From: Patescibacteria group bacterium
Lineage (GTDB): Bacteria; Patescibacteriota; Microgenomatia; CAYGWK01
DNA length: 64,000 bases
Reading direction: 5' to 3'
NCBI GenBank assembly: GCA_049322615.1
Contig: JBMORX010000010.1
Coordinates: 25,416-89,415, forward strand
Within the stretch, counting starts at the first letter, position 1, and every line of letters starts with the position of its first letter. Of the stretch, positions 1-56,900 are shown one piece after another. Under the pieces are notes generated by a model. That model saw only the letters and a list, made by a program, of their open reading frames with translations, ran no database searches and was not told the origin of the DNA. Position numbers and translations under genes: made by a program.

Positions 1-94
1 CGAAAATAATTTTAAAAACCTTAGCTCAATTCAAAACGCCAAAGGTGGCGATTTGGTTTTTTAAAACTGCCTGGAATTTTTGGAGGTGGACCAA

Positions 95-997
95 ATGAAA
101 GCAAGCGTGATTATTCCCGCTTACAATGCCCAAAAAACCATTAAAGACTTGCTTGCCTCGCTTGTTTCTCAAGATTATCCTCAAAAGGATTATGAGGTAA
201 TTGTCGTTGATGATGGCTCCAAAGATAATTTAAAATTGAAACTGGAAATTAAAAATTTAATTTTTCTGCAACAGAAACATCAGGGAGCGGGAGCGGCACG
301 GAATTTGGGGGCGAAAAAAGCCCAAGGTGAGATTTTGGTTTTTACGGATAGCGATTGTCTGATTCCCAAAGACTGGGTAAAAAATCACTTCAAAAGTCAG
401 GAAAAATATAAAGATTTTGGGATTATTGGTGGGGGAGTCAAAAAACCCAAGGAAGGAACTTATCTGGCTTGGGCTGATTTTCTCTCTTCTTGGTTTAATG
501 CCCATGAAGATTTGCCCAAACAGGAGGTTAAGGAATATCTTCCTAGCTTAAACATAAGTGTTAAAAAGGAGGTGTTTGAAGAACTTGGTGGTTTTTGGGA
601 GAAAAAATTAACTGGCGAAGATGTTGATTTTTGTTTTCGCGGCCGTCAAAGAGGAGTTAAAATTTTATTTGAGCCTGCCTTGGCTGTCTGGCATCAAGCC
701 CCAACTTTTCAGGGTTTCTTAAAACATAACTTCAATTGGGGTTATCACGCCTCATTTGTCCGCGGACAACATCAAGCTTTGAGTTTTCATTGGCTCCTTT
801 CTGGCGGTTTTTTTAAGGCTTTAATTTTATTTTTGCCCCTTGTTTGCGGGTATACTCTCTATTTGCTTATCCGTTGGTGGCGCTATCAACCCCTAAGATT
901 TATTCTCTGTTTGCCTTTAATTTTTTTCGGCAAGACAAGCTATGCTTTAGGTGTCTTGGTTGGTTCTTGGCAGAAATCATTGAAGAAAAATGATTAG
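95..997 (+). CDS. Family 2 glycosyltransferase with hydrophobic C-terminus
   Basis: ORF 80..997. ATG at 95 follows GGAGGTGG (82-89). SVIIPAYN...VIVVDDGS...FTDSD is the GT-A/GT2 pattern. C-terminal hydrophobic stretches. Confidence 0.8.
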   Translation: MKASVIIPAYNAQKTIKDLLASLVSQDYPQKDYEVIVVDDGSKDNLKLKLEIKNLIFLQQKHQGAGAARNLGAKKAQGEILVFTDSDCLIPKDWVKNHFKSQEKYKDFGIIGGGVKKPKEGTYLAWADFLSSWFNAHEDLPKQEVKEYLPSLNISVKKEVFEELGGFWEKKLTGEDVDFCFRGRQRGVKILFEPALAVWHQAPTFQGFLKHNFNWGYHASFVRGQHQALSFHWLLSGGFFKALILFLPLVCGYTLYLLIRWWRYQPLRFILCLPLIFFGKTSYALGVLVGSWQKSLKKND

Positions 998-28722: not shown

Positions 28723-28751
28723 TTGCCAAAAATCAAGTTTTTTAGTAAAAT
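28723..28751 (+). promoter_or_regulatory. Promoter TTGCCA-17-TAAAAT for the tRNA-Ile unit
   Basis: TTGCCA 28723-28728, 17-nt spacer, TAAAAT 28746-28751. The predicted start is just upstream of 28764. Confidence 0.5.
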
Positions 28752-28763
28752 ATTTTTAAGATT

Positions 28764-28805
28764 GGGCGATTAGCTCAGTTGGTTAGAGCAGCCCGCCAAA
28801 ATTTT
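28764..28805 (+). other. tRNA 5'-half-like leader (acceptor, D-arm, anticodon-stem strand) without a matching 3' half
   Basis: GGGCGATTAGCTCAGTTGGTTAGAGCAGCCCGCCAAAATTTT. Shares TAGAGCAGCCCGCCAAAA with the scaffold at 31291. Confidence 0.6.
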
Positions 28806-28877
28806 GGGTCGGTAGTTCACCGGTAGAACGCTTACCTGATAAGTAAGAAGTAGATGGTTCGACTCCATCCCGACCCA
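28806..28877 (+). tRNA. tRNA-Ile(GAU)
   Basis: GGGTCGG/CCGACCC acceptor, loop CTGATAA, T-arm GATGG-TTCGACT-CCATC. Confidence 0.85.
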
Positions 28878-28931
28878 CAGTTTTGAAGAAGAAGGCGAAT
28901 CGGGAAGGGCGCTCCGCTCCAAATTAGCCTC

Positions 28932-28960
28932 TTGACAAAAAATCGCACGTGCGATAATTT
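28932..28960 (+). promoter_or_regulatory. Promoter TTGACA-17-TAATTT with palindromic spacer
   Basis: TTGACA 28932-28937. The spacer contains tcgcacgtgcga. TAATTT at 28955-28960. Confidence 0.5.
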
Positions 28961-29208
28961 GTCAATAAATTAGCCTCAAAATTTAAAAGAAAAACCCAAA
29001 AATTCTAAAGAACAATGTTTAAAACTTTAAAGGCGCAACCGGTGGAGTCAACAAGAAATTGCTTTCCGTTGCCCGATTGCGCCATCAAAAAAAGCAATCT
29101 CCAAAATGTTGACTCCAATAACAATATACCAAAACTAAGAATAGAAAAACAAGTGGATTTCGGTACTTGAATTTTGAAAATATGATATACTTTTACTTGG
29201 AGGTAAAA

Positions 29209-29982
29209 ATGGAAAATCAAATAAGCATAGGTGATCAAAATAGCCAGCAAATTGGCCAAAATTCGATAAATCCACTTATCAGCAACAAACAGGACACAAA
29301 GCCCGTTTGGCAATCCGACGCCTTTATCATATTGACTCTATTATTATTTTGGCCAGTGGGCTTGTTTCTGATGTGGAAATATGGACCGTGGAGGAAGTTG
29401 GTAAAGTGGTTACTTACCGTATTTTTTACACTAGCGTGGTGGCCGGTCATTTTAATATTTTTGTTTATAGTTTTTCTCAAGGGGGTTGGAGTGGCCAATA
29501 AGGCTTATTACTCTCTGCCGATGGTAAAGAAAAACACTGATATTTTTTCTTGCAGTGCTGTTACCCAACCATGGGGCAAGTGTAAAAATACGGAAGTTGG
29601 TTTTTCATTCGAATATCCGGCTGACTGGTACTATAAAGTTGTAAATCCGCCAAAGGATATAGTATTTAGTGATAAGCAAGAAAAATTAGAAGAAGCTTAT
29701 ATTATTTCTCTTTACCATGATTTCTACGACACCGAAGAAAGAGCTAAAAGAAAAGAGGATGTAAACGATAAAGAACTAGTTGTAAATGGTTTATGGGCTA
29801 CTAGACATGATGTACGATCTAGTGGAATTTATGCTTCACGCGTAAAAATATTATATAATCGTACACTTTACACATTCCAAATAATGCTAACTCCCGGATT
29901 GGGAGGGAGGCAATATTCTGAAACAGAGCTGAAGAATTTTGACTCTATATTTGATCATATGTGGAACAGTTTTCAAATCTAG
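29209..29982 (+). CDS. Membrane protein, unknown function
   Basis: ATG 29209 after ggaggt. Two TM helices, then a soluble domain. Confidence 0.55.
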   Translation: MENQISIGDQNSQQIGQNSINPLISNKQDTKPVWQSDAFIILTLLLFWPVGLFLMWKYGPWRKLVKWLLTVFFTLAWWPVILIFLFIVFLKGVGVANKAYYSLPMVKKNTDIFSCSAVTQPWGKCKNTEVGFSFEYPADWYYKVVNPPKDIVFSDKQEKLEEAYIISLYHDFYDTEERAKRKEDVNDKELVVNGLWATRHDVRSSGIYASRVKILYNRTLYTFQIMLTPGLGGRQYSETELKNFDSIFDHMWNSFQI

Positions 29983-29991
29983 AAGTAATTT

Positions 29992-30210
29992 ATGAATGAC
30001 GATACACTGAAGAGCAAAGAAAAGATCATAGTTTGGATTGCAAATTTAATAAATCCTTTGATTGCCGGGTTTTTATTTTATTACTCGTGGAGGAAAAGAT
30101 TTCCAAATAAAGCAAAACAGGCAAATACAATTTCTTTTCTAGCTCTTGGGATTGACTTTATTATTTATATTTTGCTAACTAACTGGTTTAAACTAGGGAG
30201 AACGTTTTAA
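29992..30210 (+). CDS. Small two-TM membrane protein
   Basis: 72 aa, followed by the hairpin tgctcggcggagccgagca. Confidence 0.45.
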   Translation: MNDDTLKSKEKIIVWIANLINPLIAGFLFYYSWRKRFPNKAKQANTISFLALGIDFIIYILLTNWFKLGRTF

Positions 30211-30413
30211 ATTTGCTCGGCGGAGCCGAGCAAAAATCGCGCGCGCGAAACATAAGCGAGGCCGAAGGCCGAGCCCTTCGACTGCGCTCAGGGTAAACTC
30301 CAAGATGGCGCGGCGAGTGGGCGGCGGCACTCGCGGCGCTACCCTTGAAATAAAGTCCGAATTTTTTCGTAAAGAGTCCACCGTTTCCCAAACTGCCCAA
30401 AGAGCAGTTTTTT

Positions 30414-30866
30414 ATGCGAGAAAGAGAAGACCTTAGTCAGCAAATAAGAGAAATAAAAAAAAGAGCCTTGCTCGTTCTTCAGGGGGAAAGGCGAGAGGTA
30501 ATTCTTTGGTCTTTTGGAGCACCTTTGCCCAAAGAGGTGGAAGAAGCAATTTTAGAGTTTGAAAGAGAGTATGAGGATCCTAGAAGAAATATTTTTTCCT
30601 CCGCCAGAGAAGAAGTTTATTCTGGTTTGCGAATTTGGGTTCAAACAAAAGACTATCCTCTAAAAGGTCTGTCTTCCCATCGGGATGCTGAAATTATCTT
30701 AAGACAAAAAGTTCGGAATTTTCCGGCTAGACCGCCCCATATTCCCCACCTTCCTTCCATGCCCCATCGATTTTCTCATCAAGAGGAATGGAGAGTAATT
30801 AATTTTAGTTGGCAGAGAATACTTGAACGAATTCGAGAAAAGTTGGCTTCGTTCCTTCGGGCTTAA
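30414..30866 (+). CDS. Hypothetical protein
   Basis: 150-aa ORF. No motif. Confidence 0.4.
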   Translation: MREREDLSQQIREIKKRALLVLQGERREVILWSFGAPLPKEVEEAILEFEREYEDPRRNIFSSAREEVYSGLRIWVQTKDYPLKGLSSHRDAEIILRQKVRNFPARPPHIPHLPSMPHRFSHQEEWRVINFSWQRILERIREKLASFLRA

Positions 30867-30932
30867 CCCTGTACAACACTTACCTGCTCCCGAATACTTC
30901 GTGTTCGCGTCGCAAGGGCGTGTATGCGGGGC

Positions 30933-30961
30933 TTGACAAGACAAAATGCCTTTGTTATAAT
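30933..30961 (+). promoter_or_regulatory. Perfect consensus promoter TTGACA-17-TATAAT, likely for the tRNA-Ala/23S/5S unit
   Basis: TTGACA 30933-30938, 17-nt spacer, TATAAT 30956-30961. Confidence 0.7.
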
Positions 30962-31105
30962 GCTTTTTAGTTAGGAGTCAGTCCTAAGTTTAATTCATGA
31001 GAAGCCTAAGAAATTTAATAAGTCGTTTAAGACAGTTTTTGCGTGGGAAATAGTTTGGGCTTTTCAAAGCACATTAAGCTGGCTCCGATAAGGAGCCATT
31101 TTGTT

Positions 31106-31244
31106 TCGGAGTAATCAGAAGACTCGGAAAACTCGGAGAATCAGGCGGTCAGATTGTCAGAAATTCTGATTATCAGATTTCTCTGATCTTTCCGACGCAC
31201 TGAGTTTTCTGATTCTCTGAAACGAGGGCCCGTAGTTCAACTGG
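31106..31244 (+). repeat. Word hairpin copy 2 plus duplicated tRNA-Lys 5' fragment
   Basis: Shares actcggaaaactcggag, ctgattatcagattt and ctgagttttctgat with 21625-21743. Followed by gggcccgtagttcaactgg (compare the tRNA-Lys start gggcccgtagctcaatgg). Confidence 0.7.
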
Positions 31245-31290
31245 CCCCGTAAATCCGCCTTCGGCGGTAACGGGGTAAACAGAACATTTT

Positions 31291-31455
31291 GGGCCGTTAG
31301 CTCAACTGGCTAGAGCAGCCCGCCAAAAATTGTGAGAAGGGCCTATGGCGTAACGGTAGCGCATTTCGTTTGCAACGAAAAGGTTGGGAGTTCGATTCTC
31401 CCTAGGTCCACACAATTTAGGCGGGAGGTAGAGGGTTCGAATCCCTCACGGTCCA
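31291..31455 (+). other. tRNA-like scaffold (G3:U70, D- and T-arms, no anticodon loop) enclosing tRNA-Ala
   Basis: GGGCCGT/ACGGTCC acceptor and T-arm GAGGG-TTCGAAT-CCCTC. CCCGCC (31319-24) pairs with GGCGGG (31420-25), and AAATTGTG (31327-34) pairs with CACAATTT (31411-18). Confidence 0.6.
31339..31410 (+). tRNA. tRNA-Ala(UGC)
   Basis: GGGCCTA/TAGGTCC acceptor with G3:U70, loop TTTGCAA, T-arm GGGAG-TTCGATT-CTCCC. Confidence 0.85.
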
Positions 31456-31847
31456 CTAGCACCTTAACAATTGAAGAGAACCGCATTTATTCTAATTCAT
31501 GGCCTAATTTTTATTAAAGCAAATGGTGGATGCCTTGGTGGCAAGAGCCGAGGAAGGACGCGGCAGGTGGCGATACTCGTCGGGGAGAAACCTAGCATTC
31601 TTTGATCCGGCGGTTTCCGAATGGGGCAACCCGGCGCAGTGAAAACTGCGTCAAGCGCTGTTTCACTGCGATATTAAATAGTAAATAGTAAAAATCAAAA
31701 ATACATATTAAAATTCAAAAAGATTTTTCTCTTTAAAATTTTACTATCTATATTTACTATTTAATTTTTAATATTTGATATCGCTGCGAAGCAGCGTTGG
31801 GGAACCACCCGAACTGAAACATCTAAGTAGGGTGAGGAAAAGATAGA

Positions 31848-36128: not shown

Positions 36129-36601
36129 GTCGGCTCATCGCATCCTCCCGCTGAAGTAGGCGGGAAGGGTTGGACTGTTCGTCCATTAAAGCGGTACGTG
36201 AGCTGGGTTCAGAACGTCGTAAGACAGTTCGGACTCTATCCAGAGCATGCGTTGATTTCTGAGGGGAGCTCTCCTTAGTACGAGAGGACTAGGAGGGAGG
36301 AATCCCTGGTGTGTCGGCTGTTCCGTCAGGAGCATCGTCGAGTAGCCACATTCCTAGTGGATAACCGCTGAAAGCATCTCAAGTGGGAAGCCCACCCCAA
36401 GATTAGAAATCGTTAAAGACCCGTCGAAGATGACGACGTTTCCCCCTTCGCTGCTTTGCAGCTTCGGGGGGACCCCGCGTAGCTCGCAAGAGCGAAGTGG
36501 GGGATAGGCTGGAGGTTAAAGGGCAGTAATGCCTTAAGCTTACCAGTACTAATCGGTCAAAAGAATTAGGCCATGAACTAGAATAAATGAAGAGGCGTAA
36601 A

Positions 36602-36974
36602 AGTTTTTGCGCTTAAGCCTTTCGGTCTCCGGAGCGGACTGGAGCCACTCCTTCCCATTCCGAACAGGATAGTGAAACAGTCCAGCGACCCGTAAAATTT
36701 GCGCAATTTAAGATTTCAAAGTATAATAAATATGCTTCGGTGATAAGAGCGCCGTCGAACTACTCCTTTCCATTCCGAACAGGATAGTAAAAGGCGGCAG
36801 CGGGGACGATAGTTAGACCTTGTGTTTAGCGAAAATACCTCATTGCCGAAGCTTTTTTATTGCGCAAATTAACGGGTCAGGGACGTTACGAAGCTTTACG
36901 TCCCGCTGACGATAGTTCCCCGTCTAACGGGGGCGAAAATAGGTCGAGGCCGGAGGACTTGAGCGCAAAAACTT
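36602..36974 (+). other. Outer 5S-like RNA interrupted by an insertion that carries a complete 5S gene
   Basis: Closing stem aagtttttgcgct (36602-14) / agcgcaaaaactt (36962-74). Contains the 5S core ccattccgaacaggatagtgaaac and gacgatagttcccc, split by 36691-36875. Confidence 0.6.
36734..36852 (+). rRNA. rrf: 5S rRNA (inner, uninterrupted copy)
   Basis: 119 nt. Helix I gcttcgg.../...ccgaagc. Core ccattccgaacaggatagtaaaag and gacgatagt. Confidence 0.8.
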
Positions 36975-44388: not shown

Positions 44389-44464
44389 GGGCCGTTAGCT
44401 CAGTTGGTAGAGCGTCCCGATGGCATCGGGAAGGTCACCAGTTCAAATCTGGTACGGTCCACCA
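44389..44464 (+). tRNA. tRNA-Ala(GGC)
   Basis: GGGCCGT/ACGGTCC acceptor (G3:U70), loop ATGGCAT, T-arm ACCAG-TTCAAAT-CTGGT. CCA encoded. Confidence 0.8.
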
Positions 44465-53947: not shown

Positions 53948-56900
53948 TTAATTTATTATCCACCAGTTAAACCTTATCTCTTGGTCAATTGGGGTATCAA
54001 TTCCAACCTTAAACCATTCGCCAGATTTCTTGGCCGAAACGTACAAGACCTTATTTTGAGTATCTGAAACTGGAGTAAGATAAACTAAAGTATTTTCGCT
54101 GACTTTTGGATTAAAAATTGTAAATTCAGTTGAGCCCGCAGGTAAAATTCCCAACCCCGAGGTGGCGTTAGTTCGGATTTCTGCCAGGCTTGCCGATTGG
54201 GTAGCCGAGTAATCGGCGGCAATGACCAGAGAGGCAAATTGGGCTGAACCCGAAGCATCGATTGAGGCGACGGTCTCCCCAAGCGGGTTTTGAATCGCCA
54301 AGAGCTTGCCAAAAGCAGATTCTTCTGGGGAGGTCGAACCTCCGGAGAGGTTCGACCTCTTAAGGACTAAACCAGAAGCCGAGATCTCACCGCCGACTGC
54401 CAGATTGCCGGCGACCTGAACATTGCCATCGGTATCAATCGTCATCTTTCCTGCCAGAATATCAACTGGTCCCCAACCAGAGGACTGAAGACGGAGGACA
54501 GAAGACGGAAGAGAGTTGATACCCGTGCTGTCGATAACAACTGCTCCATCAACCATTAATTGTCCAGCCACAGTCGTGTCAGCCAAAGAGGTTCGGCCTA
54601 AAACCTTTAAGTTTGCGGTGATTTTCAGGTCAGAAGAAGGATCGGTGATTGGCCAAGATTGAGTCTCAGCTAAAAGACTGCTTGCAGTTGCGGTTTCGTT
54701 GGCATATGATAGAGTTGGCGTGGGGTTGGCAGGTTGGCTGGATGGGCTTGTCAAGCCACGTCCATCGGGTTCAACTCCCGACAGCTCCACGCCCTCTTGA
54801 GATTGGGACTTGACAGGCGTGTTATTATCTGTTATATTATTGTCAAGCTTGACAGGCCCATCTATTAGCGAACTTGCTGGACTTACCAGAGCCGCTTCAT
54901 TTGAGGCGGTTTTTTGGTTCTCGAGATTTTCTAACCTTGCCAATAATTCTCCAAAGCTGCCCCTTAAGGCGCTTATTTCTTTAGTTTCTATCTTGTCCGC
55001 GTAGAGGGTGCCGGAAACCGTCGCATCTTGGGTTACTTGTAACGTCTCACTTGTCACCTGTCCGGCGAAGCTTGCTGAGCCGGAAGAATCTATACTCGCC
55101 ACCGTTTCTCCTTGCTCATTCTGAACCAGAAGCTTGCCGAAGCCAGATCCTTCGGAGGTCGAACCTCCTTGGAGGTTCGACCTCTTAAGGGAAATCACGA
55201 TTTCCGAAGAGTCTGGTAATGGTGAAATAATTCCAGTCTCAACCACCGGCGAGATAATCTTCTTCTCGGCGATTAATCTTTGTCCAAAAATCGTTCCTGC
55301 TTCGTCAATTGAGGCAATGGTTTTACCAAGAGAGTCTTTAATCTCAAGAACTTTTTCAGCTACATCAACTGCCTTCTTGGTGTTAATAACTACCTTATTT
55401 AAAGTGGCTACTCCCAATTCGTCAATTAACCAATTGCCGTCCGTTGATTTAATAGTCTTAGTCACTATTTCCTGGGCTTGTATTTGTTCCTCTGGTGGTG
55501 AGTCTTGGTTCCAAGAGAGATTGGCAAAGGCGGTAACTTCTCCTAGGGCATTGATGTCTCCATTGGTTTCAAAGGGAGAAAGGGCGATTCCGATAGTTCT
55601 TACTTTACCGGTCGCCTTCATTGCCCGACCCGGGACAGGTGAGGCCGTCAAGAAATCGCCTCTTTTGATCGAGCCGCCAATTCCAGAAACCTTAACTGGA
55701 ACACGACCCGCAAGAGCAAGAGGATATTTAAATTTAGCTTCGGGCATATCGCCGTCAAGAGTTATAGCGGGCGCAGTCGAAATAATACCCAAAACATCCC
55801 CTTGATTAGCCTTTGTAGTCCTTACCAGGTTTTCGTTGTTATTTGGGTCAACAGCAACTAGTTCTCCCGGTTCAAGGGGCATACTAGCGGGAAACATTTC
55901 TGCTAAATCAAAACCGTTAGATAGACGACAACATTGAGCATACCAACCCGGATTACAAGTTCCGGGGCAGGAGCCTCCCCCTGAAACAGAGGTACATTTA
56001 TAAGTGGTGGAAATATTACTACAAGCAGTATTCCCGGTTATACCATTGCAATCTGCGGAAGTTGTACATTCAATATTTAACGCCGTACCACTTTTTCTTA
56101 TTTGACCAGTAAAGTTAATATCTCCGGAAACATCTAATTTATAGGAGGGCCCCGTCGTCCCGATGCCGACGTTGCCGTTCATATAAATCTTACCTTCACT
56201 ATCTACAATTTCCCCATAACCCGCATGCTTATACATCTGAATGTATGCACCAGCAGTACCTTCGTACAATCTTAATTTCGCTTCGCTACCACTTGTAGAT
56301 GTTCCAGCAACAATGTCCCCTGCAACTGCCAATTTAAAATTTGAACCAAGATTATTCCAGATATTAGAACCAACTTGTGTGAGATACGCTGGACTCGTCG
56401 TCCCGATGCCGACATTGCTACCATCCAGAGTCATTACATTCGCAACACCGAGATTAGTGAAAGTCAATTTACTACTTAAATTTTCGATTCTCCAGGTTTT
56501 TCCTGCGGTAGAGTTTGTAAGGTCCAGTTGGACATCGCCAGCACGTTCAATATCTAAAGCAACTGTTGGACTTGTCGTCCCGATTCCGATATTGCCAGCG
56601 TTGGTAATTCTTAGCCTTTCTGTTGCTCCGGCGTCGCCTCCAACCGAGGTATAAAAAGCCAAATCGCCAGCGTTTAAGGTATAAATCTTGGAAAGTCCGG
56701 AAGTGGGGAGAAGAGTAAGATTGGGGGTGCCGGAAATTGAGGCAATTCCACCCATCGTTAAATTGCCAACATTAATTAAGTTGTCACTTGCAAGAGAAAT
56801 ATTATTTGAGGCAGCGTTAATGGTAATATCTCCTGAACTATTGCTAATTAAAGATTGGGCGCCGCCAACAGTCAAACTTCCACTTTGGGTGGAGGAACCG

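Follow-up and report, generated by a model that had tools for sequence, protein, structure and literature searches.

A tRNA-Ala(UGC) gene nested in the anticodon arm of another tRNA-Ala gene of a Patescibacteria rRNA region: probable serial gene replacement by small mobile cassettes

Background

Group I introns home into the anticodon loops of transfer RNA (tRNA) genes and are frequent in Patescibacteria, including at position 35/36 (PMC13011429). Here we describe an insertion of a different kind, in which a complete tRNA-Ala(UGC) gene is nested between the two halves of a second tRNA-Ala gene. It was found at positions 31291–31455 of a stretch of 64,000 nt of contig JBMORX010000010.1 (hereafter the window), which comes from a metagenome-assembled genome of the Patescibacteria (Candidate Phyla Radiation, CPR). 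The nested locus lies in the fragmented ribosomal RNA (rRNA) region of the window. We analyzed it together with related loci, here referred to by L numbers, and propose that it is probably the result of serial tRNA gene replacement by small mobile tRNA cassettes bounded by inverted repeats. The full-text literature searched yielded no account of one tRNA gene nested within another, and the paper on tRNA introns of Patescibacteria (PMC13011429) does not mention such genes.

The cassettes share several features with group I introns. Both occur in the same phylum and target the anticodon loop, one cassette type exactly at position 35/36 (TTTG|CA). The cassettes are sporadic among relatives and live in rRNA operons rich in homing-endonuclease genes, and filled and empty alleles coexist, the flanking 'exon' being altered as well. 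However, they have neither a ribozyme core nor splicing, and the interrupted gene is never restored. Instead they carry a complete replacement gene as cargo, so that layers can accumulate (up to three), and they measure only ~95–140 bp.

Phages and integrative and conjugative elements likewise use tRNA genes as insertion sites and bring along a copy of the tRNA segment that they displace. The tRNA gene target, the preservation of a functional tRNA by sequence of the element and the displaced fragment that is left behind are common to these elements and the cassettes. Integrative elements, however, are kilobases long, encode an integrase and restore the gene by fusion with a partial copy, leaving direct repeats, whereas the cassette is a whole tRNA nested between halves, with inverted repeats and no integrase present. 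The cassette of the window is ~100 bp in size and contains no open reading frame (ORF), the neighbouring ORFs are devoid of recombinase domains, and the halves are nested and not directly repeated. Fragments of tRNA genes are discussed in a preprint (bioRxiv 10.1101/2022.07.05.498093).

In archaeal tRNA genes that are split, permuted or interrupted by bulge-helix-bulge introns the halves are likewise parted at or near the anticodon loop and united by complementary flanks, and a splicing endonuclease and a ligase join them into one functional tRNA (PMC3218864, PMC4033280, PMC4090602). In contrast, the present locus has a bacterial host, no bulge-helix-bulge motif and no anticodon in the halves, and its intervening sequence is itself the functional tRNA.

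The cassettes further resemble miniature inverted-repeat transposable elements (MITEs) and repeats of the REPIN type (repetitive extragenic palindromic doublets forming hairpins), since they are very short, non-coding inverted-repeat units of a shared repeat family with cargo-less copies (L256). Terminal inverted repeats in multiple copies, as in MITEs, were indeed found. Unlike MITEs and REPINs they carry a functional gene and the cargo matches the target; a clear target-site duplication was not seen, nor was a transposase identified that would belong to them.

Finally, tRNA-like processing signals are known from the t-elements of plant mitochondria and from mascRNA (MALAT1-associated small cytoplasmic RNA), and alanyl-tRNA synthetase (AlaRS) accepts minihelix substrates. 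The anticodon-less acceptor/T-arm module of the nested locus could similarly be recognised by RNase P, RNase Z, the CCA-adding enzyme or AlaRS. However, no conservation evidence for such a role was obtained and the outer halves decay in sister lineages.

Structure of the nested tRNA-Ala locus

The region 31291–31455 forms a cloverleaf inside a cloverleaf, consisting of an inner tRNA-Ala(UGC) and of outer halves that make up a full tRNA body without an anticodon loop. All coordinates of the initial annotation of this locus were correct to the base. All parts lie on the + strand. The outer 5′ part (31291–31317) comprises the acceptor strand GGGCCGT (31291–31297), the D arm (31298–31316) and A26. 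It is followed by the 5′ strand of a clamp (31318–31334; G-CCCGCC, AA and AAATTGTG), which stands at the place of the 5′ strand of the resident anticodon stem. The inner tRNA-Ala(UGC) (31339–31410) is intact, with G3:U70 and A73, and its CCA is not encoded. The 3′ strand of the clamp (31411–31425) reads CACAATTT, A and GGCGGG. The outer 3′ part (31426–31455) contains the variable loop AGGTA, the T arm GAGGG-TTCGAAT-CCCTC (31431–31447) and the acceptor strand ACGGTCC with A73.

Pairing of GGGCCGT with ACGGTCC (31449–31455) gives the outer acceptor a G3:U70 pair beside A73. As had been claimed before, this acceptor is identical in sequence to that of the tRNA-Ala(GGC) at 44389. Below it, CCCGCC (31319–31324) pairs with GGCGGG (31420–31425) to form the outer stem, and AAATTGTG (31327–31334) pairs with CACAATTT (31411–31418) to form the helix that flanks the inner gene. 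The insert, a tRNA plus a helix, is 95–101 nt long, varying with the clamp start that is chosen.

The inner gene was called as Ala(tgc) at 31339–31410 by ARAGORN and reached 70.3 bits with the Rfam model RF00005 (gathering score 29), the top tRNA score in the window. It is canonical with respect to the 7-nt anticodon loop, the D/T residues and the covariance score, and represents the sole tRNA-Ala(UGC) of the window. We predict that it is a functional gene. The outer gene is not canonical, as its anticodon stem leads into the 8-bp helix bearing the inner tRNA and not into a 7-nt loop. Its remaining arms are canonical, and ARAGORN accepts the body after deletion of the insert.

Folding of the region had been suggested as a check. 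The unconstrained minimum free energy (MFE) fold of 31291–31455 was the nested double cloverleaf (-70.8 kcal/mol, z = -5.2, 0/200 shuffles equally good), with the 6-bp helix CCCGCC/GGCGGG, a 2x1 internal loop, the 8-bp helix AAATTGTG/CACAATTT and then the second cloverleaf. When the insert was deleted in silico, ARAGORN reported a tRNA spanning exactly 31291–31455 in 319/870 variants. We also used a detector which deletes each tRNA together with 0–29 nt per side and rescans the remainder with ARAGORN. It scored 172/900 at the nested locus, 0 for the six other tRNAs of the window and <=19 for each of the remaining tRNAs of the related loci that were tested. Judged by these counts, the nested structure is real and far beyond chance resemblance. 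The anticodons created by the in-silico deletions are arbitrary, and the deletions are therefore uninformative with regard to a splice route.

Origin of the outer and the inner gene

Relatives were gathered via synteny with rpsA, which is located 3′ of the rRNA operon. Outside the anticodon arm the outer gene was 88% identical to the spacer tRNA-Ala(UGC) of L256 and 86% identical to that of L259, and its identity to the inner gene was only 72%. The acceptor stem is the same as in L256 and L259, the variable loop AGGTA is common to L259 and the T loop TTCGAAT to both. Because of this orthology and of the native surroundings (promoter and leader hairpin upstream, boxA-like element and 23S leader downstream), the outer gene is identified as the vertically inherited resident spacer tRNA-Ala(UGC), in which positions 26/27 to 43 have been replaced. 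Comparison with the relatives confirmed that the entire anticodon arm of the resident is missing at the nested locus.

The inner gene was 86% identical to the only spacer tRNA-Ala(UGC) of L004/L253 and 87% identical to the outer 3′ half of L261. It belongs to a different tRNA-Ala(UGC) sequence type, which is the single copy in other relatives.

Recurrence in other loci and lineages

A survey of CPR genomes for tRNA genes flanked by tRNA halves had been recommended in the initial annotation, and the arrangement does recur in Patescibacteria. The clamp GCCCGCC-A(A)-AAATT / AATTT-R-GGCGGG is shared by six loci of five organisms, with the cargos Ile(GAU) in L126/L127, Thr(GGU) in L128, Val(UAC) in L129 and Ala(UGC) in L274. 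A metagenome scan with GGYTAGAGCAGCCCGCCAAA yielded four more nested genes with three distinct sequences (L126/L127, L128 and L129). All four also had the 3′ clamp AATTT-R-GGCGGG-AGGT, which the search pattern did not include. The nested tRNA-Thr(GGU) of L128 is located upstream of rpmG and the nested tRNA-Val(UAC) of L129 within a tRNA array. L274 was found through synteny and not through the pattern; its cargo, enclosed by this clamp as well, is a tRNA-Ala of a further type. The MFE folds of the recurring loci were nested cloverleaves. The outer acceptor and T stems vary by locus and are fully paired in L128 and L129 and broken in L126/L127.

Outer and inner identity agree wherever they can be judged. 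For Ala the agreement is in G3:U70. For Ile, GGGCGAT... of the outer 5′ half in the window recurs as the acceptor strand of a genuine tRNA-Ile in L127, and L126 has an outer 3′ half that duplicates its resident tRNA-Ile. For Thr, both layers of L128 have G1, C2 and U73 in common.

A second copy within the window has retained the 5′ side only. At 28764–28805 (+ strand) an Ile-type outer 5′ part, GGGCGATTAGCTCAGTTGGTTAGAGCA, followed by GCCCGCC-AAAATTTT, abuts the inner tRNA-Ile(GAU) at 28806–28877 (+ strand; ARAGORN and Rfam). This stretch was 86% identical over 43 nt to the outer 5′ part plus clamp of the nested tRNA-Ala. The following CAGTTTTG (28878–28885) pairs with CAAAA of the 5′ clamp as a 5-bp remnant of the 3′ clamp, and no recognisable outer 3′ half was found 3′ of this tRNA-Ile.

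Further clamp types were present. In L127 a second type of 14 bp (TATTTTACTTTCAT/ATGAAAGTAAAATA) flanks a tRNA-Ile inside another tRNA-Ile. The clamp GCCCGTAA/TTACGGGC is common to L256 and L261, where a tRNA-Ala of the GGGC(C/T)GT type is inserted at TTTG|CA (anticodon position 35/36); the outer gene is of the L003 type and decayed in L256, and of the L004 type in L261. L261 additionally carried three layers of tRNA-Ile(GAU) at 940–1300 (also found in L262 and L263); every further gene stands in the anticodon loop of the one before, and every layer has its own clamp helix.

In the sample gathered by rpsA synteny, nested or relic layers were found at the spacer tRNA-Ala locus of 4/8 lineages (window, L256, L261 and L274), and the gene was plain in L003, L004/L253, L259 and L275. 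Replacement was reciprocal, with an L003-type outer and a GGGCCGT-type inner gene in L256 and a GGGCTGT-type outer and an L003-like inner gene in L274. In L274 (5317–5430) the inner tRNA-Ala is followed by an insertion of ~100 nt and then by a second copy of its own last 15 nt (GTCCGCCCGAGTCCA), and only then comes the 3′ clamp. This suggests further rearrangement within the cassette. The 10-gene array with the nested tRNA-Val of L129 also included an amber-reading tRNA with the anticodon CUA (41–116, reverse strand), labelled Pyl by ARAGORN.

The nested loci were identical in three assemblies of the European Nucleotide Archive (ENA; L261–L263) and in two of the Joint Genome Institute (JGI; L256 and L257), and the architecture was found in independent JGI, ENA and NCBI assemblies. 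An assembly artefact is therefore unlikely, the support being the recurrence at other loci, with the window contig itself coming from one assembly.

Other searches were negative. With the pattern GAGCAGCCCGCC N{80,110} GGCGGGAGG in genome contigs, none was tRNA-like among the matches listed with a locus G+C <55% or a T-loop-like pentamer in the gap. When viral contigs were scanned for two T loops within 50 nt, the detector, applied to 120 loci among the matches listed, gave only artefacts of packed arrays or of fragments of the att (attachment site) type. The clamp patterns gave chance matches or none in viral contigs, and blastn of 31280–31470 against phage genomes gave no match.

Filled and empty alleles

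The two JGI metagenome records L126 and L127 were 99.9% identical over 1.9 kb, and a 137-nt tRNA-Ile cassette was present only in L127. The empty and filled tRNA-Ile alleles correspond to the reverse complement of L126 9530–9620 and to L127 223–440, respectively. The tRNA-Ile of L126 is intact (GGGCGCA...TGCGCCCACCA), and the cassette of L127 is located after G34 of that gene. In the filled allele two bases of the flanking outer 5′ half differ from L126; the outer acceptor positions 6–7 read AT in place of CA, as in the invader. The empty allele cannot be derived from L127 by simple deletion between repeats. The L127 cassette therefore appears to have been gained recently, the flank being co-converted at the same time, as is characteristic of homing-type repair. 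Filled and empty alleles together with co-conversion, as expected for homing, were thus found for this sister cassette and not for the locus of the window.

At the junctions, a 2–3 nt duplication of AT(A) is possible at the two tRNA-Ile insertions of L261, none was seen at TTTG|CA (L256/L261), and in the GCCCGCC type the whole arm is replaced. Under allele-specific cleavage the anticodon stems would be expected to differ between the layers in every case. Such a constant difference is contradicted by L126/L127, where CAGTC/GACTG is common to the inner and the outer gene.

Decay of outer halves and cargo-less hairpins

Several outer halves are damaged. The outer acceptor stem of L126/L127 has three mispairs. 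In L274 the outer gene has G3:C70 in place of G3:U70 and a hairpin inserted in the T loop, and in the outer tRNA-Ala of L261 there is an acceptor mismatch and a hairpin disrupts the D arm. The T arm is lost in the outer gene of L256 and in the tRNA-Ile copy of the window. This decay speaks against a conserved role of the outer halves, notably that of an anticodon-less Ala acceptor, and therefore favours serial gene replacement by a small mobile cassette. The example in the window would simply be fresh, or at most transiently useful as a processing signal.

Clamp hairpins of 28–36 nt without cargo (CCCGCC-AAAAATT-loop-ATTTA-GGCGGG) were found as well. L256 has four of them (at 373, 1142, 1805 and 8267): one lies in a group I intron of the 16S gene, one precedes a LAGLIDADG ORF, one follows the 3′ end of the 16S gene at a distance of 12 nt and one is in a 23S intron. 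Related inverted repeats occur in the 16S leader and intron of the window (22581–22654, 25162–25243 and 25361–25373).

Genomic context and transcription unit

The order of genes in the window is tRNA-Lys, a free-standing GIY-YIG ORF, tRNA-Gln, 16S, tRNA-Ile(GAU) at 28806, ORFs, the nested locus, 23S, 5S and rpsA. The GIY-YIG ORF (21935–22171, confirmed by Pfam) stands free between tRNA genes. The 23S gene starts at 31503 and contains a LAGLIDADG ORF.

The tRNA-Ala/23S/5S unit is preceded by a sigma-70-type promoter (30933–30961, + strand; TTGACA-17-TATAAT, 12/12 match). A leader hairpin of the form GGCTCC...GGAGCC (GGCTCCGATAAGGAGCC) with a T run follows at 31080–31098 (+ strand) and also precedes the plain tRNA-Ala in L003, L004 and L259. 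Between this hairpin and the nested locus an insertion of ~160 nt with a tRNA fragment relic is present (31113–31275, + strand). It comprises a copy of the upstream region of tRNA-Lys (21635–21763), the first 19 nt of tRNA-Lys (31226–31244) and the hairpin CCCCGTAAATCCGCCTTCGGCGGTAACGGGG (31245–31275). The tRNA-Lys fragment ends after the TGG of the D loop and runs into this hairpin. Akin to it are hairpins of the form AATCCGCC-TTYG-GGCGG at 27165–27185 and beside the tRNA-Ala of L003. Downstream of the nested locus lies a boxA-like element, GCACCTTAACAATTGAAGAGAA (31459–31480, + strand), a paralogue of the 16S-leader copy at 22458–22479. It has the same position and the same GAAGAGAAC ending as the element 3′ of the plain tRNA-Ala in L259. 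The 5′ strand of the 23S processing stem (31484–31502, + strand) is complementary to 36571–36589.

The 16S gene spans 22676–26961, of which the first Rfam call covered only 22676–25051. The exon with CACTGCCCGTCA resumes at 26054 and the true 3′ end, GGATCACCTCCTT, is at 26949–26961. Two further insertions with LAGLIDADG ORFs (25522–25974 and 26301–26807) lie between 25051 and 26961. Group I introns occur in the rRNA genes of the window, and Rfam identified Intron_gpI at 26133–26838 in a search of 24800–31600. A near-perfect palindrome of 34 nt (TTGACAAAAAATCGCACGTGCGATAATTTGTCAA, 28932–28965), located just 3′ of tRNA-Ile, has a promoter-like TTGACA-17-TAATTT on both strands. A second, partial 5S copy (36634–36686; model positions 14–66, 39.3 bits) is found ~100 nt 5′ of the complete 5S (36736–36851).

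At 54722–54792 there is a 71-nt tRNA domain only, similar to that of transfer-messenger RNA (tmRNA). It reached 26.4 bits with the Rfam tmRNA model, below the gathering score, with model positions 1–374 collapsed. Its acceptor GGGGTTG/CAGCTCC has G3:U70 and is extended by a 5-bp leader-trailer helix, GGCGT/ACGCC. The domain was not called by ARAGORN, and a full tmRNA was not seen in the window.

Proposed mechanism

Serial tRNA gene replacement would have proceeded as follows. A cassette of ~100 bp, carrying a tRNA-Ala(UGC) of another type in the inverted repeat GCCCGCC-AA-AAATTGTG / CACAATTT-A-GGCGGG, would have come to stand at the former anticodon arm of the resident and would restore the function destroyed by its own insertion. 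Such an insertion would be tolerated because the cassette supplies what was lost; the genome appears to have one gene per anticodon. The cassettes may spread by homing-like double-strand-break repair or by gene conversion, with the split-tRNA halves, which are conserved between species, acting as homology arms. A candidate nuclease would cut the intact DNA of the anticodon arm; these rRNA/tRNA regions harbour free-standing genes of the GIY-YIG and LAGLIDADG types. The nested unit would be cotranscribed with the 23S rRNA from the promoter at 30933, and the clamp helix would hold the two tRNAs, which are nearly duplicates in sequence, in register. The inner tRNA would be freed by RNase P together with a 3′ nuclease, possibly after an RNase III cut of the coaxial helix of ~21 bp, and the outer halves would be by-products.

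Tentatively, the cassettes may be regarded as a distinct class of minimal selfish element, for which we suggest the name 'tRNA replacement cassettes'; we regard this wider reading as a serious possibility, only a little less likely than not. In such a class a tRNA gene in a short inverted repeat would enter the anticodon arm of an isoacceptor, and the split halves might serve as universal homology arms between distant Patescibacteria. Russian-doll tRNA genes and a fast turnover of essential single-copy tRNA genes would follow, and the GC-clamped hairpin might be the module for a mobilising enzyme.

Several observations weigh against serial replacement by mobile cassettes. No nuclease, transposase or integrase was identified beside the cassettes, and the neighbouring ORFs gave no informative Pfam match. 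This applies to the ORFs 29167–29982 and 30414–30866 of the window and to an ORF of 497 aa in L127, which are mutually unrelated. The 150-aa product of 30414–30866 had no relative besides its own record in a collection of 5.8 billion proteins. The filled/empty pair is known for the sister cassette only, and none for the locus of the window. The sample is small, with half of the loci coming from a pattern that requires the clamp. Moreover, the outer cloverleaf of the window is flawless, which fits a recent event but equally fits selection.

Other difficulties concern the clamp and the target. The cargo-less clamp hairpins in rRNA introns and spacers are all sense-oriented, which could indicate a role at the RNA level. 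The GCCCGCC type swaps the whole anticodon arm of the resident (26/27 to 43) and is not a simple interruption; such an exact replacement is possibly due to co-conversion limited by the short conserved segments TAGAGC and AGGT. One clamp is combined with four cargo tRNAs in organisms at ~80% 16S identity. An enzyme recognising the hairpin, or an RNA-level role such as that of an RNase III site, may possibly account for the shared clamp and the hairpins. Neither simple insertion nor simple homing explains the match between cargo and target identity, which we would attribute to selection together with homology.

Alternative explanations

The outer scaffold may have been kept as a processing signal. 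The clamped halves would then present the acceptor/T-arm minihelix, and RNase P and RNase Z, for which the anticodon arm is dispensable, would cut at the original boundaries and so part the tRNA unit from the leader on one side and from the 23S precursor on the other. The clamp would aid folding and release of the inner tRNA. In line with such a signal, the window, L128 and L129 have a perfect outer cloverleaf, a leader-trailer helix is found beside the inner tRNA in every cassette type, the unit is part of the 23S precursor, where it is placed after the conserved leader hairpin and before boxA, and the clamp hairpins are always sense to the rRNA transcripts. However, the outer halves have been lost or damaged, apparently without harm, in L126/L127, L256, L261, L274 and the tRNA-Ile copy of the window, and half of the relatives have a plain tRNA. 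We consider this explanation unlikely. On the processing chaperone that the initial annotation had named as one alternative, the present data speak neither way.

An accidental origin, by capture of foreign tRNA-bearing DNA at breaks in the anticodon region during frequent rearrangement of the rRNA operon, would derive the complementary flanks from the leader and trailer of the donor. Debris of rearrangements is indeed abundant: it comprises the tRNA-Lys 5′ fragment with the duplicated upstream region, LAGLIDADG-bearing group I introns and a GIY-YIG gene that stands free. A mobility protein was not found. L129 likewise contains a tRNA-Leu 5′ fragment, a GIY-YIG ORF and an intact tRNA-Leu. In that fragment a CCCGCC...GGCGGG hairpin lies in the D loop, and the intact gene is tRNA-Leu(UAA); GIY-YIG-like ORFs, read from the sequence only, are located between the tRNA genes on the reverse strand (~960–740 and 545–300). 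Unguided capture is nevertheless disfavoured by the regularity of the insertions, and seems distinctly unlikely to us. Ten independent insertions in six organisms (eleven loci with the L256/L261 pair) have all hit a tRNA whose identity matches the cargo, each time in the anticodon loop or arm, and every one is flanked by inverted repeats of 5–14 bp. Six of them have one clamp sequence in organisms at ~80% 16S identity, and a second clamp recurs at the same site in L256 and L261.

The initial annotation had put forward, as a speculation, that the outer halves, after release of the inner tRNA, are a chargeable anticodon-less Ala acceptor; the use of such an acceptor would be non-ribosomal. AlaRS charges minihelices with G3:U70, and the outer gene of the window has G3:U70, A73 and an intact T arm. 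The synthetases for Ile, Thr and Val, in contrast, depend largely on the anticodon. Since tRNAs for these three amino acids occur in the same architecture, acceptor-only charging is not expected there, and the idea would be applicable to the Ala examples only. Even among those, L274 has an outer G3:C70 and a T-loop insertion, L261 has an acceptor mismatch and a disrupted D arm, 4/8 related lineages have no scaffold, and CCA is not encoded. An Ala acceptor is therefore very improbable.

A conventional tRNA intron (group I or bulge-helix-bulge) yielding a functional outer tRNA, or else an assembly chimera, is hardly credible: group I introns are common in tRNA anticodon loops of Patescibacteria (PMC13011429) and in the rRNA genes of the window, but the insert of 95–101 nt is a tRNA plus a helix without any intron family even at E<=1, the fold has a 2x1 internal loop between the 6-bp and 8-bp helices and no 3-4-3 bulge-helix-bulge, the exons keep no anticodon, no deletion gives a sensible Ala anticodon loop, and the architecture has been assembled independently many times. 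In the Rfam search of 31291–31455 the + strand gave the inner tRNA only and the opposite strand a weak, sub-threshold match to Plastid-ycf2. The outer gene was not called by ARAGORN in intron mode (0–3000 nt) either. Together with the loss of the resident anticodon arm seen against the relatives, this agrees with the earlier statements that no excision restores the anticodon loop and that the locus is not a conventional tRNA intron.

Serial replacement by mobile tRNA cassettes thus remains our preferred explanation. A selfish insertion that carries a replacement had been listed in the initial annotation as an alternative and is backed by the comparative data. From the earlier interpretation as a whole, the anatomy, the lack of a loop-restoring excision and the selfish insertion could be retained, whereas the headline of an Ala acceptor could not.

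Implications

For annotation, tRNA finders report the inner gene only, and the halves may be mistaken for pseudogenes, split tRNAs or misassemblies. If the replacement by cassettes is true, a precursor with two clamped near-duplicate tRNAs would lend itself naturally to testing the processing rules of RNase P, RNase Z and RNase III, and cotranscription with rRNA would make the unit a potential abundant source of tRNA-half RNAs. The filled/empty pair would offer a direct experimental handle for finding the nuclease.

The cassettes would represent a strategy of mobile elements between intron homing and integrative elements, in which an essential gene is broken without splicing and a spare copy is brought along. 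They would account for the very different tRNA-Ala(UGC) and tRNA-Ile(GAU) sequences at one locus in close relatives, and would provide a mechanism for the wholesale replacement of essential single-copy tRNA genes in very small genomes.

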